The notes under the pieces are model-generated. The model saw only the letters and a list, made by a program, of their open reading frames with translations. It was not told the DNA's origin and did no database searches. Positions 19,920-40,919 of a stretch of 64,000 nucleotides of DNA are shown piece after piece. This DNA is from an uncultured Actinomycetes bacterium (GTDB lineage Bacteria; Actinomycetota; UBA4738; HRBIN12): contig CAVPIB010000004.1 in NCBI GenBank assembly GCA_963704885.1, forward strand, positions 512,001 through 576,000. Reading direction: 5' to 3'. Position 1 is the stretch's first letter, and each line of letters begins with the position of its first letter. A program made the position numbers and the translations under genes.

Positions 19920-19925
19920 GCGCGC

Positions 19926-19932: not shown

Positions 19933-19939
19933 GCGGCCC

Positions 19940-20857: not shown

Positions 20858-21502
20858 GTGTGGTGGAGCGTCGCCGCGGGGACCGTGGGTTCGATCGCGA
20901 GGGCCGGCTTCAACATCCGCATCACGGGCCAGGAACAGATCCCCCGTCGTGGGGGCGCGCTGCTCGTCTACAACCATGTGAGCGTCATCGACGCGATCTT
21001 CGTCGCGATCCCCGCGCTACGCCGGGACCGGATCATCCGTTGCTTCGCGCTCGCCGAGGACTTCGAGCGGCCGATGATGGGACGGGCGCTGCGCGGCTTG
21101 GGCCAGGTCCCGATCCGTCGCGGCGCAGGCGCCTGGGATCCACTGGAGGAGATGGCGGGCGTGATCCGCGAGGGTTGGCTGGGCGGGATCGCGCCGGAGG
21201 GCACGGTCGGAACGGGCGAGGATCTTCTTCCCATCCAGAAGGGTCCGGCCCGGATCGCGCTGCTGGCGGGATGCCGGGTGATCCCGGTCGGCCTGTGGGG
21301 CCCCCAGCGCCGTTACCCCAAGGCCGGGCTTCACTTCAAGGCGCCGCTCAGACCAACCCTCGGCGTGGCGTTCGGCCCGCCGATCCAGGCGGAGGGGGAC
21401 CCGAAGCATCGGCCGGACGTGCAGGCGCTCACGGATCGCATCGGCGAGGCCCTGCGCGAACAGGTGGAGGTCGCTCGCCGCCTGGCACCCGCTACGACCT
21501 AG
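20858..21502 (+). CDS. Lysophospholipid acyltransferase (PlsC family); start uncertain
   Basis: NHVSVID (HX4D), PIRRG, APEGT, VIPVGLWG. Confidence 0.88.
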   Translation: MWWSVAAGTVGSIARAGFNIRITGQEQIPRRGGALLVYNHVSVIDAIFVAIPALRRDRIIRCFALAEDFERPMMGRALRGLGQVPIRRGAGAWDPLEEMAGVIREGWLGGIAPEGTVGTGEDLLPIQKGPARIALLAGCRVIPVGLWGPQRRYPKAGLHFKAPLRPTLGVAFGPPIQAEGDPKHRPDVQALTDRIGEALREQVEVARRLAPATT

Positions 21503-22169
21503 CGCTGGACGCCCCCCGCAGGAACCGGTCCACCAGGGAGTCGGCGCGCACTCCCGCATCGCCTTCTCGCGCCCGGGTCTCCTCGAGGACTGCGGCGGGC
21601 TCTATCCCGGCCCGGCGGAAGTCCGAGTCGTCGTGATCGAGCCAAGCCGCGACCATCGACGCGGTCGCCTCGGGATGGAACTGCACGCAGAGGTGAGGAC
21701 CAAGCTCGTATGCCTGGACCCCGTTCGGTGTCCGGGCGATCGGCGTCGCGCCCGGGGGCAGATCGAACGTGTCCCCGTGCCACATGAACCACGGACCGAC
21801 CGGTATCGTTGCCGGGTCGACGGTCTCGACCTCGCGCCATCCGACCTCGTGGTCGTCGGCCGGGCGTGCACGTCCGCCCATGGCCTGCGCGAACGCCTGC
21901 GCGCCGAAGCAGATACCGAACACCGGCACGTGGTGCTCAACGGCGTCACGGATCGCGGCGAGCGCCCCCTCGATCCATGGGGCAACGTGCTCGCCGTAGA
22001 CGGACCACGGCGCGCCCATCACCAGGACGGCATCGAACGCCTCGGCGTTCGGTGGTCGGCCTTCCTCGGACAGCACGTGATCGACGAGCACCGCGCCGCG
22101 ATCCGACAGCGCCTCGCCTACGTGACCGGCGAGCGAGAGCCGGTGAGGCTTGAGGACGAGCGCCTTCAT
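21492..22169 (-). CDS. Class I glutamine amidotransferase (stand-alone, possible gamma-glutamyl amide hydrolase)
   Basis: GICFGAQ nucleophile, WHGDTF, VQFHPE. Confidence 0.9.
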   Translation of the reverse strand: MKALVLKPHRLSLAGHVGEALSDRGAVLVDHVLSEEGRPPNAEAFDAVLVMGAPWSVYGEHVAPWIEGALAAIRDAVEHHVPVFGICFGAQAFAQAMGGRARPADDHEVGWREVETVDPATIPVGPWFMWHGDTFDLPPGATPIARTPNGVQAYELGPHLCVQFHPEATASMVAAWLDHDDSDFRRAGIEPAAVLEETRAREGDAGVRADSLVDRFLRGASSARS

Positions 22170-22191
22170 GTCGTCCGGAAACCGGCGACGA

Positions 22192-22365
22192 TCAGACGGC
22201 CTTCACCCGGGCCCCATGCCTCGTCGTACAGCTCGTTGGCCTAGCCCAGGTCTTCAGTGAACCGTAGCGCCTCCAACGCTTCCGGCAGCGGAAAGATGAC
22301 CGGGTTCTCGAGCACCTCGAAGGGGATGAACTCCCTCGCCGTCTCGTTCCCGGTATCGACCTGGC
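22192..22365 (-). pseudogene. C-terminal remnant of a PotD/PotF-like polyamine ABC substrate-binding protein
   Basis: TGNETAREFIPFEVLENPVIFPLPEALEALRFTEDLG*ANELYDEAW then shifted ARVKAV*; contains a stop and a frameshift. Confidence 0.6.
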
Positions 22366-22369
22366 TCGG

Positions 22370-22614
22370 CCTTCGACGGGCATCATGGTGGTCATCTCAG
22401 CCACCATGAGGGCGGTCGGGAGACTCCAGATGATCGGGGTGATGCCGAAGAGGAGCAGCCCCATCCCAGCCCCGCTCTCGCCGATCGTGTCTTCCAGACC
22501 GTACGGTCCGCCCGAAACCGAGAAGAAGATGATGCCGACGAGCGCGAGCTTGTGTGGAACTTCGCGGATCGCTACGCAGGGTCGTTCGGCCGGCTCTTCA
22601 GCCACGATCGCCAT
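22370..22614 (-). pseudogene. N-terminal remnant of an APC (polyamine-type) permease
   Basis: LVGIIFFSVSGGPYGLED...PIIWSLPTALMVAEMTTMMPVEG, truncated where GGY..W should follow; GGGAGG RBS intact. Confidence 0.75.
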
Positions 22615-22673
22615 GTACCCCCTCCCGATGGTCGGCGTTGTGTACCACAGCCTCGCCGACGTGCGCTAGTCCC

Positions 22674-24083
22674 TCAAGCGCCCAGGAGGTAGGCCACCAT
22701 GTCGGCGGCCGAATAGGCATGATGGTCCGGGCCTAGGAGGCGGCCCAGCTCCTCGAGGTCGTTCCCGGCCGTCACGATCGGAGGCTCCTCGACCCCCTGC
22801 CGACGCTGCCCCAGGCCGACCGCCGCGGTCAGGCCGTTGCAGATGCACTTGCGGCTCGCCGCGTCGGACGGGTTGCCACCCTTGCGCACATAGTCCTCGA
22901 TAGGCTCCGCCGGGCAGCGGTAGCCGAGACGCCCGTCGGGAGCCACGTACACCTCGCGGAGATACCCGAGGTCGCACCGGCGCTCGCGCGCCTCCACGAC
23001 GTCGTCGTCCGAGAGCGTGCCCTCGAGCGCCACCACCTTGAACGGGAACCCGGTGGGAGAGGCCAGAGGATCGGTGAAGACCGTGACCCGGCAGGCCTCC
23101 GCTTCGGCGAGCACCCGTGCGCGGATCTCGGGCGCCATGCCCGAGTCCTCGCAGAACGCGAACGCCGTGCCCACCTGGATGCCCGCCGCGCCGCTGTGCT
23201 GCGCGCGCCGCAACCGCTCGGGCGTAGCCTGCCCGCCCGCGAGCCAGAACGGGAGCCCGAGCTCTCGGATCTTCTCGAGGTCGACCTCGTCCCGCAGTCC
23301 GTACAAGGGCTCGCCGCCGACGAGCCCGCCCGCACCCCGCGGCGGCGCGTTGTGGCCTCCGGCCGTCGGCCCCTCTATCACGAACCCGTCGACGCCCCGG
23401 GTCTTGCGAGCGAGGCTGATGGCGAGGGCCGTCGAGGCGATGATCGCCAGGAACATCGGGCGCGCCACCGGCGCGCCCGGAGCCGGCACCACGCTCCGCG
23501 GGTCGAACCGGAGGGCAACCCCGTCGCCGTCTGCGACGTGCAGCGGCAGCTCGACGGGTTCGTGCGTGGCGAGGCCGTCGAGCAGCCGCGGGATCTCGCG
23601 CGGGATCCCGGCGCCCACCAGCACGACATCGACACCCGCGACCATCGCCCCGTACAGCGTCGGCGGCGTCGGCATCTGGATCTTCTCGAGGAAGTTGATC
23701 CCCACTATCCCGTCGTGCCCCTCCTTCGCGAGCCACACCTCCACGAACCCGCCCATCGTGGCGAGGTCGAGGCTCCGACGGTGCGGCTCGGCGGTGAACA
23801 CCGGCACGGCCTTGAACGACCGGCCGTCGTCGATCCCACCCTCCACGAAGTAGCCGGCGAGTATCCGCTCGGCCACGGCGGGGGCGGGGAAGGCCGCCAT
23901 GGCCCGCCGGACGTCGCCTTCGGGGTCGCCGAGCTGCAGCCGGCGGGCGAGCACCATGTCGAGAGCCGTGCCGGACACCACCCCGAGCTGACCGGTCCGC
24001 GAGACCGCGCGAGCGAGCTGCCAGCCTGAGACGGCCACGCCCATCCCGCCTTGGATGATCGCCGGCGCGACCCTCATGCTCAT
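22674..24083 (-). CDS. Nitronate monooxygenase-family FMN oxidoreductase
   Basis: IIQGGMGVAVS, GINFLEK, EGPTAGGHN, LAGG, GIQVGTAF. Confidence 0.88.
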   Translation of the reverse strand: MSMRVAPAIIQGGMGVAVSGWQLARAVSRTGQLGVVSGTALDMVLARRLQLGDPEGDVRRAMAAFPAPAVAERILAGYFVEGGIDDGRSFKAVPVFTAEPHRRSLDLATMGGFVEVWLAKEGHDGIVGINFLEKIQMPTPPTLYGAMVAGVDVVLVGAGIPREIPRLLDGLATHEPVELPLHVADGDGVALRFDPRSVVPAPGAPVARPMFLAIIASTALAISLARKTRGVDGFVIEGPTAGGHNAPPRGAGGLVGGEPLYGLRDEVDLEKIRELGLPFWLAGGQATPERLRRAQHSGAAGIQVGTAFAFCEDSGMAPEIRARVLAEAEACRVTVFTDPLASPTGFPFKVVALEGTLSDDDVVEARERRCDLGYLREVYVAPDGRLGYRCPAEPIEDYVRKGGNPSDAASRKCICNGLTAAVGLGQRRQGVEEPPIVTAGNDLEELGRLLGPDHHAYSAADMVAYLLGA

Positions 24084-25234
24084 CCCCATAGGCGGTCGGC
24101 GACTCTACCCACCCGATCGAGCTTGCGCCACTGGGTGTCCTCGTCGGTTTCGTTGCCCACTATCACGCTCGCGAACCCGCATTGCGGGCTGATCGCGAGA
24201 CGATCCATGCCGCCGACGATACCCGCAGCTTCCTCCATACGGCGCACCAGGCCGTCTTCGTCCTCCAGCTCCCGGACTTTCGACGAGATGATGCCCATAA
24301 CCATCACGCCGCCGTCGCGCAGGAACCGGATGGGCTCGAAGCCACCGTCGCGCCCGCGGTCATCCCACTCGACCAGGAACGTGTCGAAGGGCAGCTCGCC
24401 GAACACGCGCTCGGCCACCGGCTCCAACGAGCCTTCACACATCCACGAGGAGCGGAAGTTCCCGCGGCAGATGTGCAGTCCGACCGTGATGTCGTCAGGG
24501 ATCCCCTGGAGCACGGCGACGTCGGCAGCGATCGCCCGGTCGATCAGTTGGGCAATCCCATGGCCCGCAGCCTCGAACCGCTCGATCCATGCAGGGTCGA
24601 CCAGATAGGGGTAAAGCGGGAAGTCGAATTGGATGTAGCGGGCGCCGGCTGCGATCGCCTCTGCGACCAGGACGCGCTCGATCCGGACGGCATCCTCAAC
24701 GAACGCATCGAGGCTCCCGTACCCGCCGCCATCGAGACCGGCCACCGTGGTGAACGGATGCGTGAAGATCGAGGCTGCCGGAAACGTCACCTTGAACGGG
24801 TGACCGCCCGAGGTCTCGGACATGAACGCAGCCTCACGCGCCGCGGGCGAGTCGATCGCGCGCAGCCGCCCCACGATCTCGTGGATGTTCAACTGCACGT
24901 CCTCGCCCCGATCGTTGCGGAACGTCACGGTCTTGCCGGTCCGCACGCCCTCGACCGCGTCGTAGAACGAGTTCATGAACATCCACCGCCGGAACTCTCC
25001 GTCGGTCAGCACATCGAGCCCGCAGTCGATCTGCCGCTGGATGGCCGCTCGGATCGCCTCGTCTTCCATGGCGGTCAACTCGGAACGGTCACGCGTGCGC
25101 TCCACGTCGAGAGCCGAGGAATGGCCAGGGTCGTAGAAAGCCTCGACGGCTGCACGGAGCTTGGGCGGCCGGAGGAGCGAGCCGACCGTCTCAGCGCGCG
25201 ACGGGCGGCGTGGAGTGTTGGCGGGCCCGCTCAC
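24080..25234 (-). CDS. Cobalamin-independent methionine synthase II-like protein (catalytic half only, YxjH-like)
   Basis: VGSLLRP, TDGEFRR, Zn ligands HICRGN / EWD / SPQCGF; GTG 6 nt after TAGGAT. Confidence 0.88.
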   Translation of the reverse strand: MSGPANTPRRPSRAETVGSLLRPPKLRAAVEAFYDPGHSSALDVERTRDRSELTAMEDEAIRAAIQRQIDCGLDVLTDGEFRRWMFMNSFYDAVEGVRTGKTVTFRNDRGEDVQLNIHEIVGRLRAIDSPAAREAAFMSETSGGHPFKVTFPAASIFTHPFTTVAGLDGGGYGSLDAFVEDAVRIERVLVAEAIAAGARYIQFDFPLYPYLVDPAWIERFEAAGHGIAQLIDRAIAADVAVLQGIPDDITVGLHICRGNFRSSWMCEGSLEPVAERVFGELPFDTFLVEWDDRGRDGGFEPIRFLRDGGVMVMGIISSKVRELEDEDGLVRRMEEAAGIVGGMDRLAISPQCGFASVIVGNETDEDTQWRKLDRVGRVADRLWG

Positions 25235-25614
25235 CCGCCGATCCTAAAGGGCTGGCGGCACACGGCGAGTCTGGTCGAAACCGGTCACGTGGAGCAGGTT
25301 AGGCGTTCCTGACCGGCTCCTTTGAGCAAGAAGGCGGACGGACAGCACCCACAAGATGAAACCCACGCCGACCAGCATCCCACGCTCTGACCGGGCGAGG
25401 GCTCAGATGCACCCCTTCACCCGCTCTCGAGCACCCTGACCTGCGGACTTGGAACCGAGACCGATCGTACCTCCGCCCGAAAGCCGATCGACGAAGGTTC
25501 CCTTCAAGGTCAACAGGAGTCGCTCCGATATGTAGGGAGACAGGCATCGCATCGCCGCCTGCGCAGAACGAGAAGGGGGCGCGAAGGGCTCCCATGGAAA
25601 CGAGGAGTGTCGTC

Positions 25615-27105
<1,491 letters not shown>

Positions 27106-27208
27106 GGGACCGCGCGAGCGAAACCACCGCGGCCCTCGGAGGAGGGCCCCGATGGTCTTCTCCGCAACCTGCGAGGGTCCCCGCCTTGCCGTCTTGGCCG
27201 CAGTGTAG

Positions 27209-28387
27209 TCACGCCGGATCCCAGCGCACCCACGTGGAGTCCGGCGCGCGGAACTCCCAGCCGGACAGCGTGACCGGCCGTTCAGGATCCAGCCTGAGGT
27301 TGGGCAGGCGGTCCAGCAGGATCTCGAGCGACACGCGCGCCAGGTGCAGGCCGAACCAAGCCCCCAGGCAGAAGTGTGTGCCGGCCGAGAACGCCATATG
27401 CGCTCCCTCCTTCCGGTGGATGTCGAACCGGTCGGGTTCTGTGAAGCGTTCCGGATCCCGGTTGGCCGACGTGAGCACCGCACCTATCAGATCACCCGCC
27501 GCCAGCTGCACCCCGGCAAGCTCGGTCGCCCTCGTCATCTGCCGGGTGGCGGTGCCCACCGGCCCCACCCACCGCAGCGTCTCCTCCACGGCCGGCTTGA
27601 TCAACGCGTGGTTCAGACGGACCTCGTCAAGCTGCTCCGGGTGCGTTCCCAGGGCCCAGATCACTAGAGCGATGATGTCGCGTGGCTCCTGCAGCCCGCC
27701 GGAGAGCATGAGCTTGGTGTTCGCGACGATCTCCCCGCGGGTCATGCGATCGCCGTCCGCCTCGTGGTGGAGCATCCACGACAACACCGAGCCGTCTGGT
27801 TCGTCCTCGAGACGGTCCAAGACGCGCTCGATGGCCTGCCCCAGCTCGGCGCTGGCCGCATCGGCCGGCGCCTGCTTATCGGGGTTGCCCTCGAAGTTAG
27901 CCAGGCCGGGCATCATCCCCTGATTCCAGCGAAGCAGATCCTCCCAGGGGACCTCGTCCAAGCCGAGCATGAAGCGCAACGCCCGCACGGACATAGGGTC
28001 GGCGTAGGCCGTGAACAGATCCACTTGGCCACGATCCGCGAAAGAGCCCACCAGCTCGTGAGCGAGCTTGGGGATCATGCCTTGGGTCCGCTCCTCAACA
28101 TCCCGCGGACGGAACGGAACCTCGGTGATACGCCGGATCCGTTCCTGGTCCGGACCCTCCGAGCCCAACATGTTCTTGCCCATGGTTCGGTTGAGCGTGG
28201 ACGGATCGGTTTCGGCCGTGAATAGGTCGGGGGTCATCACCACCGCGCGGACGTCGTCGTGGCGCGTTACCAACCAGAGCTGGACGGCTGGGACCCAGCT
28301 CACGGGCTCCTCAACGCGCAGGCGCGCATAGATGGGGTAGGGGTCTCGCTCCAGTTCTTCCAGCGTGATCGAGTCGCCGACCGTCAA
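27209..28387 (-). CDS. Cytochrome P450 with atypical I-helix (GGLQEP; GcoA/CYP255-like)
   Basis: DPYPIYARLR, ETLR (ExxR), FSAGTHFCLG heme ligand; TTG start after GGGAGG. Confidence 0.92.
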   Translation of the reverse strand: MTVGDSITLEELERDPYPIYARLRVEEPVSWVPAVQLWLVTRHDDVRAVVMTPDLFTAETDPSTLNRTMGKNMLGSEGPDQERIRRITEVPFRPRDVEERTQGMIPKLAHELVGSFADRGQVDLFTAYADPMSVRALRFMLGLDEVPWEDLLRWNQGMMPGLANFEGNPDKQAPADAASAELGQAIERVLDRLEDEPDGSVLSWMLHHEADGDRMTRGEIVANTKLMLSGGLQEPRDIIALVIWALGTHPEQLDEVRLNHALIKPAVEETLRWVGPVGTATRQMTRATELAGVQLAAGDLIGAVLTSANRDPERFTEPDRFDIHRKEGAHMAFSAGTHFCLGAWFGLHLARVSLEILLDRLPNLRLDPERPVTLSGWEFRAPDSTWVRWDPA

Positions 28388-28456
28388 GATGCCTCCCGAG
28401 GCTCGGTGGAGATGGGTATCTTGGGCCCGAAGGATCCAGGCGCGCAAGGAGGGTCG

Positions 28457-29764: not shown

Positions 29765-30353
29765 CGGACGGCTCGTGCTTGCCTGCTTCCCAATGCTCCC
29801 GGTATCGATCGGTGGCGAACCCTAGAGGGGTTTCCTCCAGCTCCGTCGCCATCGTGTCGTTCCACCGGTTCAGGAACCCGAACAGACCTACCACCGCCAA
29901 GATCTCCACGATCTGGCCGTCGTCCCAGTGCTTAAGCAGCTCCTCGAAATGCGCAGGCGTCACCTCGTTCGGCACTAGGGAGGCATCTCGAGCGAACCGG
30001 AGCGCGGCCCGCTCACCGTCGTCATACAGCGGTGAGCGCTCGAAGTCCCAGATCGCCGCGATCTTGCCGTCGTCCACGCCGCGCATCTTCGCGTCGACGG
30101 CCTCGTGCGCTTGGCAGTAGCGGCACCCGGCGGCAACGCTCGACACGATCCCCACCAACGGTTTCAGTGACATAGGCAGCGTCCCGGTCCGCCAGATCTG
30201 GGTGATCAGCTCGCTGAAGGCCCTCAGGATCTCGGGCCGCCGCGCCATCGTGAACAGGCTGTTGGGCACGAACGAGAGCGTGTCGTCGTACCGTTGGAAC
30301 AGCTCTTCGAGCTCGGGATGGTCCTGCCGACGGAGCGGCTCCATGTTCGCCAT
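29739..30353 (-). CDS. AhpD/carboxymuconolactone decarboxylase family protein
   Basis: CRYCQAH, ERAALRFA, QIVEI, FLNRWND. Confidence 0.88.
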   Translation of the reverse strand: MANMEPLRRQDHPELEELFQRYDDTLSFVPNSLFTMARRPEILRAFSELITQIWRTGTLPMSLKPLVGIVSSVAAGCRYCQAHEAVDAKMRGVDDGKIAAIWDFERSPLYDDGERAALRFARDASLVPNEVTPAHFEELLKHWDDGQIVEILAVVGLFGFLNRWNDTMATELEETPLGFATDRYREHWEAGKHEPSVSGREGST

Positions 30354-30424
30354 CGGGCCTCCAGTGGCTCGTTCGATCGGTCCCGGATACGGCAGACTAT
30401 GCCGAACTACGGGCGGGGGTCCCG

Positions 30425-32577: not shown

Positions 32578-32662
32578 CCCGGGTGCCTACTCGGTTGCGG
32601 GGGCAGGTACTTCGGTAGCAAGATACCGGCCGCCGCCCGCGACGGAGCCGAGAGGGGATCGT

Positions 32663-33910
32663 ATGACCGCCACGCTCGACGGGATCGACCTGGCCAACCC
32701 CGACAACTACGTCGAAGGGGTTCCGTTCGACTGGTTCGACCATCTCCGGCACGACGCTCCCGTCGCATGGCATCCCGAGCCGGCACCCAACCACGGGTTC
32801 TGGGCCGTCACCCGCTACGACGACCTGACCCAGATCCACATGGACTGGGAGACGTTCTCCTCTGAGACAGGGGCCGTGGCGCTGGAGGAGCTGGATCCCG
32901 AGCAGCTCGAGGTTCGCAAGACGATGCTCGAGACCGATCCCCCTCGCCACACCGAGCTCCGCAAGATCTGCTCGAAGAAGTTCTCCGGGCGCGGGGTGGC
33001 GATCTATGAAGACTTCATCCGGGACGTGGCCCGCAAGGTCCTAGACCAGGCGCTGCAGGCCGACGAGTTCGACTTCGTGCCCACGATCTCCCGCGAATTG
33101 CCCATCCGGTTCCTGTGCACCATCTTCACGGTGCCCCAGGACGACGCCCCGAAGCTCATCAGCTGGGGCGACCAGATGATCGCCAACCAAGATCCCGACC
33201 TTGCTCGGCTGGTTGTCGACAAGGACGACACCGAGGAATACAGGACGCTTCAGTTCCGCTCCCCCGCTGCGCTCGAGGTATTCGAGTACGCACGCCAACA
33301 GCGAGACGCCCGCCTGGAACAACCCACGGACGACGTGATCAGCGCCCTCACGCTGGCCCAGAGCGAAGGGATCTTGAACGAGCGCGAGCTCCTGAACTAC
33401 TTCGCCGTGTTGATGATCGCGGGGAACGAAACGACGCGACACACGATCACCGCAGGCATGCTGGGACTGATCCAGAACCCCGATCAGCTCCGCTTGCTCA
33501 AGGACGATCCTTCGTTGATCTCCACGGCCACCGAGGAACTGCTGCGTTGGGCGTCGCCCGTCATGCACTTCCGTCGGACGGCCACGCGTGACGTCGAGCT
33601 CCGCGGCCAGCAGATCAAGGCAGGTGACAAGGTCGTGACCTGGTACATCAGCGCCAACCGCGACGAGGAGGTCTTCCCGGACCCCTATCGCTTCGACGTC
33701 ACACGCAAACCTAATGACCACGTCACGTTCGGACCGGGTGGGCCGCACTTCTGCCTGGGCGCGCACCTCGCTCGCCTGGAGACCAAGATCCTGTTCCAGG
33801 AGCTGATCCCGCGCTTGGACTCCATCGAGCTGGCTGGCCCCATCGAACGGATCCGCTCCAACTTCGTGAACGGGATCAAACGGATGCCGGTTCGGGTCAT
33901 CTCCAGCTAG
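32663..33910 (+). CDS. Cytochrome P450 (CYP124/125/142-like)
   Basis: GFWAVTRY, DPPRHTELR, AGNETT, ELLR, FGPGGPHFCLG. Confidence 0.95.
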   Translation: MTATLDGIDLANPDNYVEGVPFDWFDHLRHDAPVAWHPEPAPNHGFWAVTRYDDLTQIHMDWETFSSETGAVALEELDPEQLEVRKTMLETDPPRHTELRKICSKKFSGRGVAIYEDFIRDVARKVLDQALQADEFDFVPTISRELPIRFLCTIFTVPQDDAPKLISWGDQMIANQDPDLARLVVDKDDTEEYRTLQFRSPAALEVFEYARQQRDARLEQPTDDVISALTLAQSEGILNERELLNYFAVLMIAGNETTRHTITAGMLGLIQNPDQLRLLKDDPSLISTATEELLRWASPVMHFRRTATRDVELRGQQIKAGDKVVTWYISANRDEEVFPDPYRFDVTRKPNDHVTFGPGGPHFCLGAHLARLETKILFQELIPRLDSIELAGPIERIRSNFVNGIKRMPVRVISS

Positions 33911-34032
33911 CGAAGCCCCCCACGGGAAGAGCGTTGACCCCGGGCGCTGAACTTCGGGTAGGCGGGCTCAAGCGATCGTCGCGTTAGGTCGATGGTCGGG
34001 TGATTCCCCGCGCCAGGAGGCCGAGCGAAGCG

Positions 34033-34950
34033 ATGGCGGTGAAGGCGGTCGCGTTGGTCTTGTTCGCGCCCGCCTTCGCGGTGCTATTCGGATGGCTCTA
34101 TCGAGGGCTCATCGGGCGGCGGCCGGGACATCGTGAGTGGACGAGGTTCCTGGCGGCGGAGGTCGTGCTCCTCCTGATCCTGTCGGTGGTCCCGAATCCG
34201 GTCTTCGCAGCATTCTCTTTGGCCTGCGCCGTCCTTGCGCTTGGACTTTCGATGTTCTGCTTGATCGTGCAAGCGGTCCGGCGCGTTCAGATCGGACGCT
34301 GGCGGGCGCGCGCCAGGGCCACGGTGTCCGCGGACCCGGCCGAGCTTTCTCCCTTGGAGGGGCCACTCTCACCGTGGCTCTCCACACAGGCCACCGAACT
34401 TGAGGCCAGCGGCTTCCGGCAGACCGAGCAGGGGATCGACCGCGACGGTTGGACGTATCTGATCTTGTTCCGTGAGTCGGACTCGGTTGCGGCTGAGGTC
34501 GGGATGCCTCCACTGGATGATCGCCGCTTTGACGCGACGAGGCATCGAGTCGTCGAACTGACCAGCATCCTGGAGGGGCACGCAGGGGCGCTGTGCACGA
34601 ACTCGAGGATGGCGTTAGGACCGTCCTACTGGAGAGGGGAGCTCCGGCAGCACTTCCCGGGGGCGGCCGCGCCCGTGCTGGTCAACGAGCACGAACGAGC
34701 GGTCCGGCTCCTGGGGGAGCGCGGGATCGCCGTCGAACGATACCCCATCGAGCGTCTCCACCAGGAACGCTCGTGGGGTCTCCGGATGATGGCGGCGGCG
34801 CTAGCTTCGACGTCGAACCGGGCGATCGTGAGGCAGTTCACGCCGGATGCGCAATCGCAGCGTTGGCTGTTCGGTCGTCTCGAGGATGACCCCAACCTAT
34901 GGCAGCGCCTCCAAGACCTCCCACCCCCTCAGTCGACCGTTGCACACTGA
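34033..34950 (+). CDS. Hypothetical membrane protein (about 3 N-terminal TM helices plus a soluble domain)
   Basis: About 300-aa ORF filling the gap between genes; hydrophobic N-terminus; AGGAGG 10 nt upstream; no family recognised. Confidence 0.6.
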   Translation: MAVKAVALVLFAPAFAVLFGWLYRGLIGRRPGHREWTRFLAAEVVLLLILSVVPNPVFAAFSLACAVLALGLSMFCLIVQAVRRVQIGRWRARARATVSADPAELSPLEGPLSPWLSTQATELEASGFRQTEQGIDRDGWTYLILFRESDSVAAEVGMPPLDDRRFDATRHRVVELTSILEGHAGALCTNSRMALGPSYWRGELRQHFPGAAAPVLVNEHERAVRLLGERGIAVERYPIERLHQERSWGLRMMAAALASTSNRAIVRQFTPDAQSQRWLFGRLEDDPNLWQRLQDLPPPQSTVAH

Positions 34951-34985
34951 CCGAGCCAACTCAGATCGAGCTAGTCCGCGTGGGA

Positions 34986-35483
34986 CTAGTCTCCGTTGCG
35001 ATCCACCGCGCGATACATCGAACGCAGCAGGTTCGCGAGCGCATCCTGTTCCGCTCGATCCAGATGCGAGGTCAGCTCCACCTCGGCGTGGTTGAAGCGT
35101 GGGAACAGCGCCTCGATCTTGCGCTTGCCCGCAGGGGTCAAGGACACCAGGACCATCCGGCCATCGCGCACGTCCTTGCGCCGACGGACGAATCCTCGTC
35201 CCTGCAACGTGGTGACGACACCCGTCGCGGTGGGACGGCTGACCCCCACCGCCTGCGCGAACCCGCGGGTCTCCATCTCGCCCCAAACCCAAAGGACCCA
35301 CAGGCCGGTGAACGACGTCCACGACAGCCGATCGGGGCCGAGCACGTTCGCCTCCATGTGACGGCGGATGGCGGCCGACGCCCGGAACAGGTTGGAGACG
35401 GCCCACATCGCGCGGAAGTCGAGGGCCTTGTCCCCGAGGACCTCCAGGACCTTGCGTTCGGCCGGCAGTAGGTCGTCGCTCAA
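34986..35483 (-). CDS. MarR family regulator
   Basis: LSWTSFTGLWVL, VSRPTATGVVTTLQGRGFVRR, DGRMVLVSLTPAG. Confidence 0.92.
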   Translation of the reverse strand: MSDDLLPAERKVLEVLGDKALDFRAMWAVSNLFRASAAIRRHMEANVLGPDRLSWTSFTGLWVLWVWGEMETRGFAQAVGVSRPTATGVVTTLQGRGFVRRRKDVRDGRMVLVSLTPAGKRKIEALFPRFNHAEVELTSHLDRAEQDALANLLRSMYRAVDRNGD

Positions 35484-36907
35484 CCGGCGCCCTCGGCCGC
35501 GATCCGCTCACCCAGCTCGCGCGCGACGTCCAAGATCGCGAGCACGTCCTGATCGGTCGTGCGGAAGTTGACGAAGCACGGACGTAGCCAGACCTCCCCG
35601 TCGATCAGCGCCGAGGCCAGGTACACACGGCCGTCGGCCTGGATCGCCTTGGCGAGCGCCTGGTTGTGAGCATCGAGATCCTTTACGCCCTGCGGCGCGT
35701 GACGTATCGGCACGATCGAGAGCTGTGGCAACGCCACCATGGTCTCGAAGTCACCCGATCTCTGGGCGGTGCGATACAGGAGGTCGGCCTCGTGGAGGTT
35801 CTGCTCGATCGCCAGACGGAACTGCTCTGCGCCGTGCGCTCGGAACGCCAGCCATAGCTTGAGCGCTCGGAACGGACGTGAGTACTCCAGAGTGATGTCG
35901 ACCGCATGCAACTCGTGCTGTTGGTGCGGGAGGTAGCCCTGCTCGTGCGCGAACGCGCGTGTGAGGGCGCCGTGTTCGCGGACCAGCACGACCCCGCAGG
36001 CCTTCGGCAGGTAGAGCCACTTGTGGGCGTCGACCGAGACCGAATCCGCCCGAGCCAGGCCGGCGAACGACGGCGTGTGACTGGGGACCGACGCGGCGGG
36101 CAAACCGTACGCTCCGTCCACGTGGAGCCAAACGTTGCGCTCGTCGCACACATCCGCGATCGGATCGAGCGGATCGATCGCGCCGGTGAGTGTGGTGCCC
36201 GCGGTCGCGACGACCGCCACGGGGGTGACTCCTTCGGCAAGGTCACGGTCGATCGCTTCGGCCAGAGCGTCTGGTCGCAGCCGCCGGTGCGCGTCGATGG
36301 GGAGGTCTCGCAGGTTCTCCGAGCCGATCCCCAGGAGCTCCACGGCTCGTGTGATCGAGTAGTGCACCTCGGACGAGCAGTAGACGGCCACGGGCCGGCC
36401 GGACAGGCCGGTCGCGCGCGAACCCGGAAGGGCTTGCTCGCGTGCAGCGGCGAGCGCAGTCATGTTGCTGATCGTCCCCCCGCTCGTGAACGCGCCGATG
36501 GTGGCCGGGAACCCCACGAACTCGCTGACCCAGCGGACGGCCTGCTGCTCGATCTCGGTGGCGGCGCGGGCATCTACCGCGAGGTTGATGTCGTAGGTGT
36601 GAGCGAGCAGGTCCGCGATCGTGCCGATCTCGAGGCCCGAGGACCCGATGAAAGCGAAATAGCGAGGGCGCGGCTGGGCGATCGACTCGTCCAGGATCCG
36701 CGCGGCGTCCTCCAACACCTCATGGACCGGAACCGGTCCCTCGGGAAGGCCGGTGCCGAGGAGCCCCCGCACGCGCTCGTCGAGCGGGGGCTCCTCGGGC
36801 CGGTACCGGTCGAAGCTCCGCCAGGCCTCTTCCACCAGCTTCGTCGCGTGCGCGAGAACCTCCTCGCGCGGAGCATCGAGCCGGAGCGGCCGTTCGGGCT
36901 CCGTCAT
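35480..36907 (-). CDS. Group II PLP-dependent (aromatic amino acid/glutamate-type) decarboxylase
   Basis: FTSGGTISN, HYSI, ATAGTT, HVDGAYG, DAHKW; ATG 7 nt after TACCAT. Confidence 0.92.
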   Translation of the reverse strand: MTEPERPLRLDAPREEVLAHATKLVEEAWRSFDRYRPEEPPLDERVRGLLGTGLPEGPVPVHEVLEDAARILDESIAQPRPRYFAFIGSSGLEIGTIADLLAHTYDINLAVDARAATEIEQQAVRWVSEFVGFPATIGAFTSGGTISNMTALAAAREQALPGSRATGLSGRPVAVYCSSEVHYSITRAVELLGIGSENLRDLPIDAHRRLRPDALAEAIDRDLAEGVTPVAVVATAGTTLTGAIDPLDPIADVCDERNVWLHVDGAYGLPAASVPSHTPSFAGLARADSVSVDAHKWLYLPKACGVVLVREHGALTRAFAHEQGYLPHQQHELHAVDITLEYSRPFRALKLWLAFRAHGAEQFRLAIEQNLHEADLLYRTAQRSGDFETMVALPQLSIVPIRHAPQGVKDLDAHNQALAKAIQADGRVYLASALIDGEVWLRPCFVNFRTTDQDVLAILDVARELGERIAAEGAG

Positions 36908-36927
36908 GTTCTTGATGGTACGAGCGC

Positions 36928-38418
36928 TCAGATCTCCTTCCCGTCGATCTCGGTGTGGAGATCGTGGAGCACCCGGCTCGCCGGATCACGGCCCTTCGCC
37001 ACGCTCATGACCACCAGACCCAGAACGAACCAGATCACCGCGTACCACGGAGCCAGCACGGTGGGACTCGGCACCTTGTAGAACGAACCGAAGATCGCGG
37101 CGCCCGTCATCACCAGGCCGAGGATGATCGAGATCCAGACCTTCGCCTTGCTGGGATCGTCCGCGAGCCCCCGGATCGCCCCGAGCGACATCAGGAAGTA
37201 GACGACCAGAAGAGCGAACCCTCCGAAGGTCGCGCACCAGGCGAACAGCGAGAAGTAGTGCGGCAGGCCTTCCAGCGCGAACAAGCTGTTCCACCACTGG
37301 CTCGCCACGATCAGCAGGGCCTGCACCACGATCAGGAAGACGATCGCGCCGACCGGAGTCCCGTGCTTCTCCGAGACCGTCGCGGCCATGGCTGGCAACC
37401 GCCGGTCACGCGCCATGGCGAAGACGCCGCGCGTCGACGCGACCGCCGCTCCAACGTATACGGCCAGCATGTCCAGGAACACGACGACGAGCAGCAGCTT
37501 CAGAACGAAGTCGGAGCCGAACTCGCCACCCGGCGCGCCGAGCGCGAACAACGGCGCACCCGCCACATCGGGGCTCGTGATGATCGACATGTCGAACCCG
37601 AACCCCGCCACCTCGACGTAGGCGGCGATGATGTAGAAGACAGATACGACCACGACGGACAGCAGGACCGCACGCGGGATCGACCTCTTCGGCTCGGCCG
37701 TCTCCTCCGCCAGGTTGGCCGCCGTCTCGAACCCAACGAAGATCAACACCCCGTAAAGGACGCCGAATACGATGCCGGAGAACCCATCCGGCGACGGGTC
37801 CGGGTTGAACGCCTTCGCGAAGTCGTTGTCGCCACCGAGCCGGACGATCACCGACAGGAAGTACGTGAGCACGACCGCGACCGACACCAAGGCCAGCGTC
37901 AATTGGACGCGCGTGGAGATCTGGACGCCGAAGTACAACACCACGAACAGTCCCAACGCGAAGATGGCGTCCCACAGCCAGATCGGCAGGAGACCCCCTG
38001 TCACGTCGAAGACCCCCGGCATCAGGTTGTCGTGGACGTACCCTCCGAGCAGCACCCCCAACCCAGTGGTCAGGATGATCGTGCCGGCGTAGTAGAGCCA
38101 ACCGGCCGCCGCCCCGACCGTGACCCCGAGCCCGTTCGTGACGTAGTCGTAGAGCGATCCGGCCGCGTGGATCCGTTTCGCGTACTGCGCGACGATCCAT
38201 CCCAGCGCGAACACCCCGACGCCCGAGATCAGCACCGCAAGCGGAGCGGACGTTCCGGCGCCACGAGCAGCCGCGTTCACGCCCACGATCAGCGGGATTA
38301 TGAACGCGGCGCTGAACACCGGACCCATGAACCCGACCGACTGCGCGATCACATCTATCAGGCCGAGCTTCTTACCCCCGAGCCTTTCGTAGCCGACTTC
38401 CGACTGTTGATCTGCCAC
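36928..38418 (-). CDS. APC family amino acid/amine permease
   Basis: QSVGFMGP, AGSLYDY, FVGFETAANLAEET, FAMARD; GGAGGG RBS. Confidence 0.92.
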   Translation of the reverse strand: MADQQSEVGYERLGGKKLGLIDVIAQSVGFMGPVFSAAFIIPLIVGVNAAARGAGTSAPLAVLISGVGVFALGWIVAQYAKRIHAAGSLYDYVTNGLGVTVGAAAGWLYYAGTIILTTGLGVLLGGYVHDNLMPGVFDVTGGLLPIWLWDAIFALGLFVVLYFGVQISTRVQLTLALVSVAVVLTYFLSVIVRLGGDNDFAKAFNPDPSPDGFSGIVFGVLYGVLIFVGFETAANLAEETAEPKRSIPRAVLLSVVVVSVFYIIAAYVEVAGFGFDMSIITSPDVAGAPLFALGAPGGEFGSDFVLKLLLVVVFLDMLAVYVGAAVASTRGVFAMARDRRLPAMAATVSEKHGTPVGAIVFLIVVQALLIVASQWWNSLFALEGLPHYFSLFAWCATFGGFALLVVYFLMSLGAIRGLADDPSKAKVWISIILGLVMTGAAIFGSFYKVPSPTVLAPWYAVIWFVLGLVVMSVAKGRDPASRVLHDLHTEIDGKEI

Positions 38419-38458
38419 CTGGAGTCCCCCTCCCTCCGGTCGCGCCTCGCGCTGACCG

Positions 38459-39337
38459 CTATCCCGTCCAGCCGTCGGCCGGACGCTCGAACCACACGTG
38501 CACCTGCCCCGTCCCCACCGAGGCCTCGTACTCACTGAACCGCTCGCCCGGCGCCTGGCAACGCGCGCCGCCGATGGCTCCCGCCATGATCAGGTAATGC
38601 CCGAACTTCCCCTCGGGACCGAACTTCCGGTACTCGGGAAGCCAGTCGATAACACCCGCGTGGTCGCCAGACCCAAGTAGCCCCAGGACGTGCTGGTCGG
38701 CGGCCGCCGACTCCGGCGTGATGATGTTCTCGATGCTCGAGGACTCACGCGTGCGGAGCTCCCTGAACGGGAGGAAGCGGTGCGACATCCCTCCCGACGC
38801 CAGCAGGATCACTCGGCGGTCGAGCCCGGCGATGGCCTGCCCGAGCATCTCGCCCAGCAGCAGGTAGTCATATGTGTCGGCGCATTGGTTGATGCCGACC
38901 GAGACCCAGCGTTCATCACCGTGCAGGAACGACCAGATGTTCACGGTCCCGTACTGGATCGGGAGATACGGGTCGTCGCATGCCAGCACCCATGTGTCGT
39001 CACGAGCGTCGGCGATCTTGGCCAGCGCTTGGGCCAATCCGGGGTCGCCGGGCATGTCGTACTCGATCTGGCTCATCCCGCGAGGGAGTTCGTGCGACGT
39101 GAATGTGCCCTTCCGCCGCTCCTCGGACGTGATGATGTGCTCGAACGTTACGTCCCAGTGCGTGTCCATCACGACGACGGTGTCCGGCTTCAGCCGGTCG
39201 AAGCACTCGGTCTTCATGCGCCGGAGTCCGGGTACGAGCGTGATCTCCTTGCCGTCGTTCATCTCTAAGCGAACCTCTTCCGGCAGCATGATGGTAGGGA
39301 CGTGCGCCACGATCGCTGCGCCGACGATCTCACCCAT
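38459..39337 (-). CDS. hpaD: Homoprotocatechuate 2,3-dioxygenase-like (LigB-type extradiol dioxygenase)
   Basis: AHVPTI, DTHW, TSHELP, YGT, ASGGMSHRF, GHYL, GTGQ, resembling E. coli HpaD/HpcB. Confidence 0.8.
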   Translation of the reverse strand: MGEIVGAAIVAHVPTIMLPEEVRLEMNDGKEITLVPGLRRMKTECFDRLKPDTVVVMDTHWDVTFEHIITSEERRKGTFTSHELPRGMSQIEYDMPGDPGLAQALAKIADARDDTWVLACDDPYLPIQYGTVNIWSFLHGDERWVSVGINQCADTYDYLLLGEMLGQAIAGLDRRVILLASGGMSHRFLPFRELRTRESSSIENIITPESAAADQHVLGLLGSGDHAGVIDWLPEYRKFGPEGKFGHYLIMAGAIGGARCQAPGERFSEYEASVGTGQVHVWFERPADGWTG

Positions 39338-39343
39338 GTGCGT

Positions 39344-40807
39344 TCAACTCCCCTCGTTCCACGGTGCGGTACAGACGTTCTTCACGTCAGCGTAGAAGTC
39401 GAAGCTCCAGATCCCGCCCTCGCGGCCGATCCCGGAGGCGCGCGATCCTCCGAACGGAGCGTTCAGATCGCGGACGAAGAAGCAGTTCACCCAGACGGTG
39501 CCGGCGACCAACCTGGCGCTGACGCGCTCAGCTCGTTCCCGGTCACCCGTGTACAGGATCGCCGCGAGGCCGTAGTCCGTGCCGTTGGCGAGCAGCACGG
39601 CCTCCTCCTCGTCGGAGAACGGCTGAACGGTCAAGACCGGTCCGAACACCTCGTGCGTCAAGATCTCCGAGCCCGCGGGGGCGTCTACGAAGAGCGTCGG
39701 CCGGTAGTAGAGGCCACCTAGATCCTCGTTGGGGCCGCCGCCCAACGCGGCCTTGGCGCCGTCGGCCTTGGCGCGCTGCACGAACCCGTCTACGCGCTCG
39801 AAGTGCTCCCGGCTGATCTGCGGTCCGATGTCGGTGGGGTCGTCACGGGGATCCCCCTGCCGGATAGCCCCCGCGGCCTCCGTGAACCGGTCCAGGAATA
39901 CGTCGTAGATCTCGCGCTGGATCAGCAGGCGCGTTCCGGCCAGGCAGACCTGCCCCGCGTTGTCGAACTGCCCCACCGCTTGCTTCACCACAGCGTCCAT
40001 ATCCGCGTCGGCGAACGCGATGAACGGCGACTTCCCCCCAAGCTCCAGCGAGACGGGCGTGAGGTTCGCACCCGCAGAAGCCGCGACGAGCTTGCCTGTC
40101 GGCACCGAGCCGGTGAAGGCGATCCGGTCGACGTCGGGGTTAGCCACGAGCGCTGCGCCGGCCTCCTCCCCGATCCCCTGCACGACGTTGAGTGCGCCGT
40201 CGGGCAATCCGGCGTCATGCGCGATGTCGGCAAGCATCGAAGCCGTGAGGGGCGCCCACTCCGGAGGCTTGAGGACCACGGTGTTCCCCGCGGCGAGCGC
40301 GGGCGCCAGACGCCAGGTAGCGAGCATGAGAGGCGCATTCCATGGCGTGATCACCACAGCGACGCCCGAGGGATCCCAGGACGCGCGCTCGTTGAACCCG
40401 TTGAAGTCCACGTCGGCGCCACCGAGCTCCAGCAGACGGTCGGCGAAGGATCGGAAGTTCCGCGCGACGCGCGGCATGACGGAGTTCCTCATCGAACGCT
40501 GGAGCGAACCGTTGTCGCGGGTCTCGACGGTGGCCAGATCCGGGACCCGAGCCTCCACGCCATCGGCGATCGCGTGCAAGATGGCGGCTCGGTCGATGGG
40601 CGCCAACCCTCCCCACGTAGGGGCGGCGTCCCGCGCTGCCGCCACGGCGGCGTCGGCCTCTTTCGATCCCCCGCGCGAGACCTCAGCGATCGGCCGCTCG
40701 TCGATCGGCGAGACGTCGGTGAACGTGGCATCGGAGGCCACGCGTCGCCCGCCGATCCAGTGCTCGGTCGAGACCTCGACACCCTCGATGGTGGCGGATG
40801 CGCCCGT
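39344..40807 (-). CDS. hpaE: Aldehyde dehydrogenase (HpaE/2-hydroxymuconic semialdehyde dehydrogenase-like); probable ACG start
   Basis: ITPWNAP, FTGSVPTG, LELGGKSP, GQVCLAG, EVFGPV, PFGGSRASGIGREGG; directly upstream of hpaD. Confidence 0.75.
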   Translation of the reverse strand, partial: TGASATIEGVEVSTEHWIGGRRVASDATFTDVSPIDERPIAEVSRGGSKEADAAVAAARDAAPTWGGLAPIDRAAILHAIADGVEARVPDLATVETRDNGSLQRSMRNSVMPRVARNFRSFADRLLELGGADVDFNGFNERASWDPSGVAVVITPWNAPLMLATWRLAPALAAGNTVVLKPPEWAPLTASMLADIAHDAGLPDGALNVVQGIGEEAGAALVANPDVDRIAFTGSVPTGKLVAASAGANLTPVSLELGGKSPFIAFADADMDAVVKQAVGQFDNAGQVCLAGTRLLIQREIYDVFLDRFTEAAGAIRQGDPRDDPTDIGPQISREHFERVDGFVQRAKADGAKAALGGGPNEDLGGLYYRPTLFVDAPAGSEILTHEVFGPVLTVQPFSDEEEAVLLANGTDYGLAAILYTGDRERAERVSARLVAGTVWVNCFFVRDLNAPFGGSRASGIGREGGIWSFDFYADVKNVCTAPWNEGS

Positions 40808-40847
40808 GCAGCTACCTCCCGTCAGGATGGGTCGAACGTCGCCCGGT

Positions 40848-40890: not shown

Positions 40891-40919
40891 GCGGGGTAGG
40901 GCCCACGAAGGGCGCCGGG

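Follow-up and report, generated by a model that had tools for sequence, protein, structure and literature searches.

We analyzed a 64,000-nucleotide stretch of DNA (hereafter the window) that covers positions 512,001 to 576,000 of contig CAVPIB010000004.1 in assembly GCA_963704885.1, from an uncultured Actinomycetes bacterium (GTDB lineage Actinomycetota; UBA4738; HRBIN12). The window carries a gene cluster in which a glutamine synthetase (GS)-like ligase, GS_1 (28457-29764, plus strand), and a cytochrome P450, P450_2 (32663-33910, plus strand), lie among genes for ring cleavage of the homoprotocatechuate type. Judged from gene order and co-occurrence, GS_1 and P450_2 are an ancestral pair conserved across the phylum, and the cluster probably serves amine catabolism that depends on gamma-glutamylation, with a P450/ring-cleavage combination that is probably undescribed. 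An earlier note, made from the letters of this DNA, had proposed a single functional unit that joins the ligase and P450 genes with those for amidotransferase, decarboxylase/permease and meta-cleavage; this core claim is supported by the recurrence of the set.

Proteins of the window were called from a listing of open reading frames (ORFs), a coding test on GC3 (G+C at third codon positions), Pfam and NCBIfam. Every gene that the earlier note had named was found, with the strand right and the coordinates approximately so. Three further genes of the same conserved set, FAAh_a, the ADC-family gene and FAAh_b (18373-20785), lie just outside the start of the region that it had marked. The G+C of the window is 66-70%. 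The host genome is 3.0 Mb in 20 contigs and 97% complete, and the public genomes nearest to it were assembled from soil metagenomes and carry the label uncultured Actinomycetota.

Recurrence of the gene set in Actinomycetota

We searched 401 Actinomycetota genomes with P450_2 (E ≤1e-110) and GS_1 (E ≤1e-75) as queries. P450_2-like genes are present in 52 genomes and GS_1-clade ligases in 49; both are found in 48 genomes and neither in 348. The four genomes with P450_2 and without GS_1 hold the four weakest P450_2 matches, and the only genome with GS_1 and without P450_2 has 9% contamination. The 48 co-occurrence genomes span nine actinobacterial families, and all 28 of those outside the family of the window bear both genes on one contig within 16 kb of each other (within 2 kb in 24 of the 28). 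P450_2 homologs of 45-55% identity occur in 32 genomes outside the family and track GS_1-like ligases.

The neighbors of P450_2 homologs were surveyed at 20 loci outside the family by tblastn with the window proteins. GS_1-like ligases (39-50% identity) are found at 17 of these loci, homologs of the acetoacetate decarboxylase (ADC)-family gene at 18, FAAh_b-like genes at 17, HpaE-like aldehyde dehydrogenase (ALDH) genes at 16, the glutamine amidotransferase (GATase) at 10 and the pyridoxal phosphate (PLP)-dependent decarboxylase at 8. Among the three loci lacking GS_1, one has GS_1 and LigB 15 kb away, and the P450_2 matches of the other two rank among the weakest. An extradiol dioxygenase is present at 15 loci, six with the LigB type and nine with the vicinal oxygen chelate (VOC) type. 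At these nine LigB-less loci the VOC-fold gene lies between the P450 and the ADC gene, and the best NCBIfam model of its products is TIGR02295 (VOC HpaD), at 90-102 bits and below the cut-off. That two unrelated dioxygenase folds, each HpaD-like, occupy one slot suggests that cleavage of a side-chain-bearing catechol is an integral step. Gene order varies between families, and in several of them all genes lie on one strand (L121-L123, L134); inherited synteny is therefore insufficient to explain the association.

The ligase, the P450 and a GATase-type hydrolase occur together in the window and at 10 of the 20 outside loci, and a PuuD-like C26 hydrolase is present at others. In the GS_1/P450_2 cluster of another family, at L111/L118 (G278) and L133 (G254), a histone-deacetylase-family amidohydrolase and a 534-aa reductase precede a P450_1-like gene, the GATase is lacking, and a different fold may fill the amide-hydrolase step. 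Some families have a second ALDH in the cluster, and in the large genome with locus L124 a ferredoxin and a ferredoxin reductase are added. The cluster regulators are of the MarR or GntR type, uptake permeases are present, and the carriers include small (2-4 Mb) genomes across many families. The set has also reached a linear plasmid of Streptomyces canus NBC_00633, where FAH, HpaD, ALDH, ADC, FAD reductase and ferredoxin genes are divergent from GS and P450 genes and adjoin a transposase and integrases. FAAh_b is 73% identical to the plasmid copy, and the plasmid dioxygenase is annotated by NCBI as 3,4-dihydroxyphenylacetate 2,3-dioxygenase. The earlier note had named neighborhood conservation among relatives as a check on its proposal, and the set indeed recurs, reshuffled, in nine actinobacterial families and on a Streptomyces plasmid.

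Synteny within the family was examined at 18 loci from relatives and at 80 public-genome loci around GS_1 homologs (59-91% identity), on which the window proteins were placed by tblastn; many of the 80 loci are short contigs. P450_2 is present at 67 of the 80, FAAh_b at 59, the ADC gene at 56, the MarR gene at 53, P450_1 at 47, FAAh_a at 46, the PLP decarboxylase at 45, a MetE-like gene at 42, LigB at 38, the ALDH at 31, GS_2 at 20 and the GATase at 14. The housekeeping genes gltX (16937-18376, minus strand, on the left flank) and pepN and ilvE (beyond the ALDH, on the right flank) are syntenic within the family as well, so that family-level synteny proves little on its own, and the association outside the family carries the decisive weight. 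The more distant genera of the family lack P450_1 and GS_2 and show the order FAAh_b, GS_1, often a saccharopine-dehydrogenase-like gene, and P450_2; a 66% identical saccharopine-dehydrogenase-like gene is found in the genome of the window on another contig (C8:9792-10940). One of the 80 loci (L098) belongs to a bin labelled Planctomycetaceae; its genes stand in the order typical of actinobacteria, and mis-binning of the contig is a more probable explanation than transfer.

Two interleaved modules and their enzymes

GS_1, with an ATG start behind AAGGAGG, is divergent across 69 bp from a second P450 gene, P450_1 (27209-28387, minus strand), the start of which we placed at a TTG preceded by the ribosome site GGGAGG. 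This divergent arrangement is found in all 47 family loci holding P450_1. Upstream of P450_2 lie a short-chain dehydrogenase/reductase (SDR) gene (30425-31222, plus strand; PF13561, 211 bits) and a second GS-like gene, GS_2 (31219-32577, plus strand), the stop of the former overlapping the start of the latter (ATGA). The earlier note had paired P450_1 with GS_1 and GS_2 with P450_2, a pairing that is refuted by two genera of the family (G227 and G327) in which the genes are divided between separate loci. Locus A contains FAAh_a, the ADC gene, FAAh_b, GS_1, optionally the saccharopine-dehydrogenase-like gene, P450_2 and MarR. Locus B contains the PLP decarboxylase, the GATase (not detected in locus B of G327), the MetE-like gene, P450_1 and a carboxymuconolactone decarboxylase (CMD)-family gene, divergent from two SDR genes and GS_2, with an APC permease nearby; the decarboxylase, amidotransferase and permease genes there are copies separate from those of locus A. 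The order in the window is that of locus B with GS_1 inserted between P450_1 and the CMD gene, followed by P450_2. The true pairs are therefore GS_1/P450_2 and GS_2/P450_1, and the divergent P450_1/GS_1 pair is, on these gene orders, a by-product of interleaved modules.

Module A thus comprises GS_1, P450_2, the GATase, LigB, the ALDH, FAAh_a, FAAh_b, the ADC gene and MarR, with the permease and the decarboxylase as feeders. Module B, which is lineage-specific and interleaved in module A, comprises GS_2, the SDR gene, the CMD-family gene, P450_1 and the MetE-like gene. The CMD-family gene is AhpD-like, with a CxxC motif (29739-30353, minus strand; PF02627, 46 bits; the peroxidase-related model TIGR01926, 62 bits and below the cut-off), and is next to P450_1 where module B stands apart (loci L116 and L141). 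The MetE-like gene, of the cobalamin-independent methionine-synthase family (24080-25234, minus strand; PRK06520, 246 bits and below the cut-off; PDB 1ypx, 164 bits), adjoins P450_1 in 37 of the 47 family loci with P450_1. A block of the MetE-like gene, P450_1 and GS_1, together with the CMD and SDR genes, has been relocated away from P450_2 in eight loci.

Genes like P450_1 are rare, being found in 18 of the 401 genomes at E ≤1e-60; the carriers include the genome of the window and 11 of the 22 other sampled genomes of its family. The closest homologs outside the family show 39-42% identity, and five of their loci were viewed. One such gene (41-42%) is part of a GS_1/P450_2 cluster in an unrelated family (L111/L118), where SDR, ALDH, deacetylase-like amidohydrolase and reductase genes precede it. 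The next closest (39-40%, L112) is accompanied by a VOC dioxygenase, a CMD protein, a fumarylacetoacetate hydrolase (FAH)-family gene, MarR and a ferredoxin reductase. At the other three loci (L113-L115) the neighbors are unrelated.

Both ligases are members of the GS family (PF00120; GS_1 277 bits, GS_2 290 bits). We aligned them with E. coli GlnA and PuuA and with the paralogs of their own genome (E. coli numbering). The metal ligands E129, E131, E212, E220, H269 and E357 and the arginines that hold glutamate and ATP (Arg321, 339, 344 and 359) are kept in GS_1, in GS_2 and in the whole P450-linked clade. The ammonium site is lost: Asp50, Ser53, Tyr179 and Glu327 are replaced by Cys, Val, a gap and Leu in GS_1, and by Ser, Val, Asp and Phe in GS_2. 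The P450-linked clade has Leu, Met or Ile at the Glu327 position and mostly Cys at the Asp50 position. The flap segments RLQPDMLNG (GS_1) and RTRSGEFSG (GS_2) stand in place of GYEAP in the alignment with E. coli GlnA, as the earlier note had read them. The true GS of the genome, encoded elsewhere (C1:634512), keeps Asp50, Ser53 and Glu327, and its Tyr179 position aligns to a gap.

Neither ligase can be assigned to a curated family. The GlnA model gives 199 bits for GS_1 and 190 bits for GS_2 against a cut-off of 429, which sets both apart from true GS; the PuuA model NF045547 gives 235 bits for both (cut-off 650), and the model for type III GS/gamma-glutamylmethylamide synthetase (TIGR03105) gives 220 and 243.5 bits (cut-off 469.6). 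The best solved relatives of GS_1 are ordinary GS (about 169 bits), and those of GS_2 are two uncharacterized GS-like structures, 11zs (282 bits) and 5dm3 (240 bits). In a quick IQ-TREE analysis of 38 GS-family sequences, with E. coli PuuA and GlnA as outside references, the P450-linked ligases form one clade of 28 sequences, 11 orthologs from the family and 17 sequences from other families (SH-aLRT 96), which is confined to Actinomycetota in this sample. The phylogeny that the earlier note had outlined was thus followed for its GlnA and PuuA references, from both of which the GS_1 clade stands apart. The clade is also separate from GS_2 and from the other paralogs of the genome, and GS_2 falls on the PuuA side of the tree, grouped with a paralog of its own genome and not with GS_1. 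The genome bears a second amine-tagging locus (C1:426744-438261), with two GS-like, two GATase-like and one C26-like gene within 12 kb. This locus resembles a cluster of the Puu/GlnA3-4 type and could take over gamma-glutamyl products of the pathway encoded in the window.

The genome contains three P450 genes in all. The best solved relatives of P450_2 are a reconstructed CYP125 ancestor (CYP125MRCA, 428 bits), CYP125 (278 bits) and CYP124 (261 bits), followed by CYP126, CYP268 and CYP153, and its I-helix has the canonical acid-alcohol pair. A context of sterol catabolism was found at none of the loci examined; a ligase, ring-cleavage genes and regulators adjoin P450_2 in every one. P450_1 is closest among solved structures to 6g71 (240 bits), SyoA (8u09, 233 bits) and GcoA (5ncb, 213 bits). 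Its I-helix GGLQEP aligns with GGLQEP of SyoA, so that a Gln-Glu pair stands instead of the acid-alcohol pair. According to a paper on SyoA (PMC11842817), such a Gln-Glu pair is typical of CYP255 O-demethylases, and aromatic demethylation is carried out by both CYP255 and CYP1232. These similarities make P450_1 a CYP255/CYP1232-like candidate aromatic O-demethylase. The earlier note would have its proposal refuted if the P450s bound only sterols/fatty acids or phenols and ignored glutamyl amides; on that score the similarities cut both ways, with P450_2 sterol/lipid-like and P450_1 phenolic O-demethylase-like.

No reductase of the GcoB/AgcB type adjoins P450_1 in the window; a reductase precedes its 42% homolog in L111. 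Some 26 kb away in the window, a minus-strand pair (60191-62124) consists of a gene for a ferredoxin-NAD+ reductase (best model of the AndAa/HcaD type, 296 bits and below the cut-off) and a preceding ORF, the C-terminal 100 residues of which match Rieske-type ferredoxins. No Rieske oxygenase was identified beside this pair, the next ORF (62566-63852) being similar to major facilitator superfamily (MFS) transporters. The reductase and the Rieske-type ferredoxin could conceivably be partners of the P450s.

The genes for ring cleavage lie on both sides of the ligases and P450s. On the right, the ALDH, LigB, APC permease, PLP decarboxylase and MarR genes form a tight minus-strand run. The ALDH (39344-40906 as maximal ORF; PF00171, 505 bits) scores best among 40 ALDH models with HpaE (TIGR02299, 494.9 bits against a cut-off of 638.35; PuuC, 359 bits). 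The LigB-type extradiol dioxygenase (38459-39337; PF02900, 89 bits) is HpaD-like, with HpaD_Fe (TIGR02298) as its best model at 140.9 bits against 315.95. In the PDB it matches the homoprotocatechuate enzyme 8iq8 at 96 bits and the 2-aminophenol 1,6-dioxygenase beta subunit at 33 bits. The amino acid/amine permease of the APC family (36928-38535 as maximal ORF, the true start probably being further in) matches PF00324 and PF13520. The group II PLP-dependent decarboxylase (35480-36907; PF00282, 214 bits) matches 4obu, presumably a tryptophan decarboxylase, at 215 bits and the DOPA decarboxylase 7xin at 196 bits; its top NCBIfam model is diaminobutyrate (DABA) decarboxylase, at 195 bits and far below the cut-off. 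The MarR regulator (34986-35483; PF01047, 50.5 bits) is weakly HpaR-like (TIGR02337, 44 bits, below the cut-off).

On the left are two HpaG-like enzymes of the FAH family: FAAh_a (18373-19134, minus strand; PF01557 and PF10370), with an Rv2993c-like N-terminus and a candidate isomerase/decarboxylase, and FAAh_b (19940-20785, plus strand; PF01557). Against the cut-off of 276.4 for the HpaG C-terminal model (TIGR02303) they reach 215 bits, as the best NCBIfam match of FAAh_a, and 192 bits. The ADC-family gene between them (19131-19928, minus strand; PF06314) matches the MppR model of NCBIfam at 212 bits, below the cut-off, and the structures of MppR (4jm3, 190 bits), 4zbo (162 bits) and 5upb (114 bits). 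It does not classify as a true acetoacetate decarboxylase, and its nearest group is that of MppR and Sbi00515, which we take to be non-decarboxylase members of the family that act on 2-oxo acids as aldolase-dehydratases. The protein is thus a candidate hydratase-aldolase in place of HpaH and HpaI. The GATase (21492-22169, minus strand; PF00117, 57.6 bits; Peptidase_C26, 26.9 bits) is a stand-alone class-I protein and a candidate gamma-glutamyl-amide hydrolase. In the 97% complete genome no matches to HpaH, HpaB or copper amine oxidase were found, therefore the usual upstream and hydratase steps need other enzymes; an HpaI-like gene on another contig reaches 107 bits against a cut-off of 369, and the genome does not encode a complete canonical Hpa pathway.

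A possible route and its rivals

The reading that we favor, and that in our judgment could about equally turn out right or wrong, is that module A degrades a glutamate-tagged aromatic amine by way of a P450 and ring cleavage, with module B interleaved in it. A phenethylamine-type amine (tyramine- or dopamine-like) would be imported, or formed from its amino acid by the decarboxylase, and GS_1 would gamma-glutamylate it with ATP. P450_2 would oxidize the tagged amine to a catechol, the extradiol dioxygenase would cleave the ring, and the ALDH, the FAH enzymes and the ADC-family hydratase-aldolase would convert the fission product to pyruvate and a C4 fragment, with the amidotransferase-like hydrolase taking off the glutamate. 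In the variant that we prefer, the tag would be retained through ring cleavage and would keep the amine from cyclizing onto the fission product. If carbon atoms are counted as in the Hpa pathway, the C4 fragment would in that case be gamma-glutamyl-4-aminobutanal, a link to Puu-type chemistry. Retention of the tag would explain the PuuD-/GATase-like hydrolase and, in some families, the second ALDH in the cluster, and also the sub-threshold scores for all Hpa models. Module B would probably feed in a related, likely methoxylated amine, with P450_1 as O-demethylase. Possible as well, though on the doubtful side, is the broader claim of a widespread, undescribed and mobile actinobacterial pathway in which the tag is kept through both hydroxylation and cleavage, the ADC-family enzyme replaces HpaH/HpaI and module B is an extension.

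Several observations weigh against the favored reading. No match to an Hpa model reaches its curated cut-off. The decarboxylase scores about equally against diaminobutyrate/lysine and aromatic decarboxylases, so that its substrate is not fixed. Between GS_1 and P450_2 the more distant genera of the family carry a saccharopine-dehydrogenase-like gene, which would be in keeping with a di- or polyamine of aliphatic type. The nearest characterized relatives of P450_2 hydroxylate sterol and lipid side chains and aliphatic chain ends, not aromatic rings. No ferredoxin partner for the P450s was identified in the genome, where tblastn with the ferredoxin of L124 gave no match and a scan with PF13459 gave a single match, within a large ORF and under the threshold. 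Related genomes do not count as independent samples, and the true number of independent events is lower than the co-occurrence counts suggest. The search of sequencing runs listed no RNA run, and the DNA shares are small (0.06-0.15) and from sediment metagenomes. The plasmid core of Streptomyces canus lacks the amidotransferase and the decarboxylase; the hydrolase step is thus not always locally encoded, and the decarboxylase is an optional feeder rather than a core step.

The route put forward in the earlier note, spelled out here in chemical terms and in our view unlikely, differs in the position of oxidation. The P450 would hydroxylate the carbon next to the nitrogen, the carbinolamide would fall apart into glutamine and an arylacetaldehyde, and the ALDH would turn the latter into (hydroxy)phenylacetate or homoprotocatechuate, to be degraded by ordinary homoprotocatechuate meta-cleavage; the ligase and P450 would take the place of an amine oxidase, with glutamine as the form in which the nitrogen is released. 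It would suit this route that both types of dioxygenase score best against homoprotocatechuate dioxygenase models, that NCBI names the plasmid enzyme accordingly, that copper amine oxidase was not found in the genome, and, as a further point against our own reading, that a hydrolase-free plasmid core fits release of the tag as glutamine. However, the single local ALDH would have to oxidize two different aldehydes, tyramine would still need a ring hydroxylase (HpaB was not found), and with the tag lost as glutamine it would be hard to see what the GATase (10 of the 20 loci) or C26 hydrolase is for. CYP125-type enzymes, moreover, act on chain ends rather than internal carbons. Another rival divides the genes between two unrelated pathways lying side by side: an ipu/pip-like module, in which the ligase and a CYP125-like omega-hydroxylase would degrade an aliphatic amine (derived, say, from a basic or branched-chain amino acid), next to a homoprotocatechuate-type pathway of its own. 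The nearest solved relatives of P450_2 are aliphatic omega-hydroxylases, some genera have a saccharopine-dehydrogenase-like gene between GS_1 and P450_2, the top model of the decarboxylase is DABA decarboxylase, and housekeeping gltX, pepN and ilvE are syntenic in the family too. We nevertheless regard two separate pathways as decidedly unlikely, for the association persists through reshuffling in nine families, through the swap of dioxygenase fold and through compact transfer to a plasmid, and several families have all genes in one same-strand run.

The catechol could also derive from a tagged arylamine or aminophenol, the P450 replacing a Rieske aniline dioxygenase and LigB acting like 2-aminophenol dioxygenase. 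A GS-like ligase and a GATase-like hydrolase that feed meta-cleavage follow the known logic of aniline degradation, and LigB does match the 2-aminophenol 1,6-dioxygenase beta subunit weakly. Its score with the homoprotocatechuate enzyme is far higher (96 versus 33 bits), the linked decarboxylase and amino-acid permease would have no role in arylamine use, and the HpaG-like and ADC-like enzymes suit a muconate with a side chain as substituent; an aniline-type substrate is thus quite improbable. It is most improbable of all that the cluster is biosynthetic, with P450 oxidation and extradiol cleavage of a tyrosine-derived unit (betalain-like or alkylproline-type) under a protecting glutamyl group. 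A P450 and a LigB-family dioxygenase acting on tyrosine-derived substrates is the logic of betalain formation, and MppR, the nearest solved relative of the ADC-family enzyme, is itself biosynthetic. The HpaE-like dehydrogenase and the two HpaG-like enzymes speak instead for complete degradation, the cluster is found in small genomes (2-4 Mb) of many families together with MarR/GntR regulators and uptake permeases, and genes for tailoring, export or resistance, as expected of product clusters, were not seen in it.

Neighboring genes and relation to known systems

An acyltransferase gene (20858-21502, plus strand) lies on the left flank. A 140-aa ORF (22192-22614, minus strand) has no Pfam or NCBIfam match and is present in 2 of the 80 family loci. 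It is followed by a gene for a flavoenzyme like nitronate monooxygenase (NMO) (22674-24089, minus strand), with a partial domain (PF03060, 56 bits, residues 213-334 only). Tblastn gave no counterpart of this gene in related loci, and by that comparison it is a lineage-specific insertion. Likewise without counterpart by tblastn in related loci is the gene for a trypsin-like serine protease with a C-terminal zinc ribbon (25594-27105, plus strand; PF13365, PF13240) between the MetE-like gene and P450_1, which is probably an unrelated insertion. In the unrelated locus L111, too, the P450_1-like gene has a trypsin/PDZ protease gene behind it, which may be coincidence. The 316-aa ORF downstream of P450_2 (34000-34950, plus strand) has GC3 below 0.80, no family match and no counterpart by tblastn in related loci, and may not be a gene. 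In a comparison of shared 9-10-mers in ten intergenic stretches, 4 common 9-mers were found against a rough chance expectation of about 3, and no regulatory motif is therefore claimed. Some 6 kb from the cluster, a minus-strand run (46228-52229) encodes a pair of GcvT-like aminomethyltransferases (46228-47442 and 48031-49188), a protein resembling flavin amine oxidases (49189-50826) and a transporter of the MFS type (50922-52229). It looks like a separate set for amine or N-methyl catabolism.

In the literature searched, from which subscription journals were largely absent and in which papers were in part accessible, we found no description of a gene set with a GS-like ligase, a P450 and homoprotocatechuate-type enzymes, and none of bacterial catabolism via gamma-glutamyl-tyramine or gamma-glutamyl-dopamine; gamma-glutamyltyramine is mentioned, for example, in a paper on methylofuran biosynthesis. 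A term search of a 2022 review of actinobacterial GS-like enzymes (PMC9397018) gave no mention of P450, aniline, isopropylamine or tyramine. Within that coverage, the statement of the earlier note that the combination is undescribed probably holds. If the favored reading is true, many Actinomycetota would use a ligase and P450 front end for aromatic amines, and arylalkylamines would join aliphatic amines and anilines as targets of gamma-glutamyl tagging. Biogenic aromatic amines, among them tyramine, dopamine and methoxylated forms of these, occur commonly in soils, in plant litter and in guts, and the textbook bacterial route for aromatic amines relies on amine oxidases and HpaBC. The same reading would give a first physiological role to the GS-like ligase clade, to a CYP125-related group of P450s and to catabolic MppR-like enzymes of the ADC family. 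The enzymes could interest biocatalysis, for the regioselective hydroxylation or O-demethylation of protected amines.

The two P450s can each be set beside a characterized group. P450_1 resembles the CYP255 O-demethylases (GcoA, AgcA, SyoA) and CYP1232, which include its best solved relatives and share the Gln-Glu pair; unlike CYP255 systems, it has no adjoining GcoB-type reductase, and its neighbors are a GS-like ligase, an AhpD-like and a MetE-like gene. P450_2 has its nearest solved relatives among the CYP125/CYP124 omega-hydroxylases, with which it shares the canonical I-helix, whereas its context is a ligase and ring-cleavage genes and not sterol catabolism.

Among whole pathways, the isopropylamine (ipu) pathway of Pseudomonas uses the ligase IpuC, the P450 IpuD and the hydrolase IpuF. 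Likened by gene content, both systems have a GS-like ATP-dependent ligase that would tag the amine, a P450 that would oxidize the tagged amine and an amidotransferase-type hydrolase; the ipu pathway has neither an aromatic ring nor the meta-cleavage genes that are present here. The front end of aniline degradation consists of a gamma-glutamylanilide synthetase, a GATase-like hydrolase and a Rieske dioxygenase, and there too GS-like tagging precedes an oxygenase that makes a catechol for meta-cleavage. The cluster of the window differs from it in having a P450 instead of the Rieske enzyme, a lower pathway of the homoprotocatechuate type, and a linked decarboxylase and amino-acid permease. As in the Puu pathway of E. 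coli, a GS-like ligase would tag the amine, the other end would be oxidized under the tag, and an ALDH and a C26/GATase hydrolase would finish the route, and our preferred variant would converge on the Puu intermediate gamma-glutamyl-4-aminobutanal. GS_1, however, lies outside the tree group containing PuuA, and a P450 with a ring-cleavage set is found instead of a PuuB-type oxidase. With the Hpa/Hpc pathways the cluster shares an extradiol dioxygenase, a semialdehyde dehydrogenase, an FAH isomerase/decarboxylase and an HpaR-like MarR regulator, with Hpa families as the best models; it departs from them in that an ADC-family enzyme stands where a hydratase and an aldolase are expected, and in that a ligase/P450 front end is fused on.

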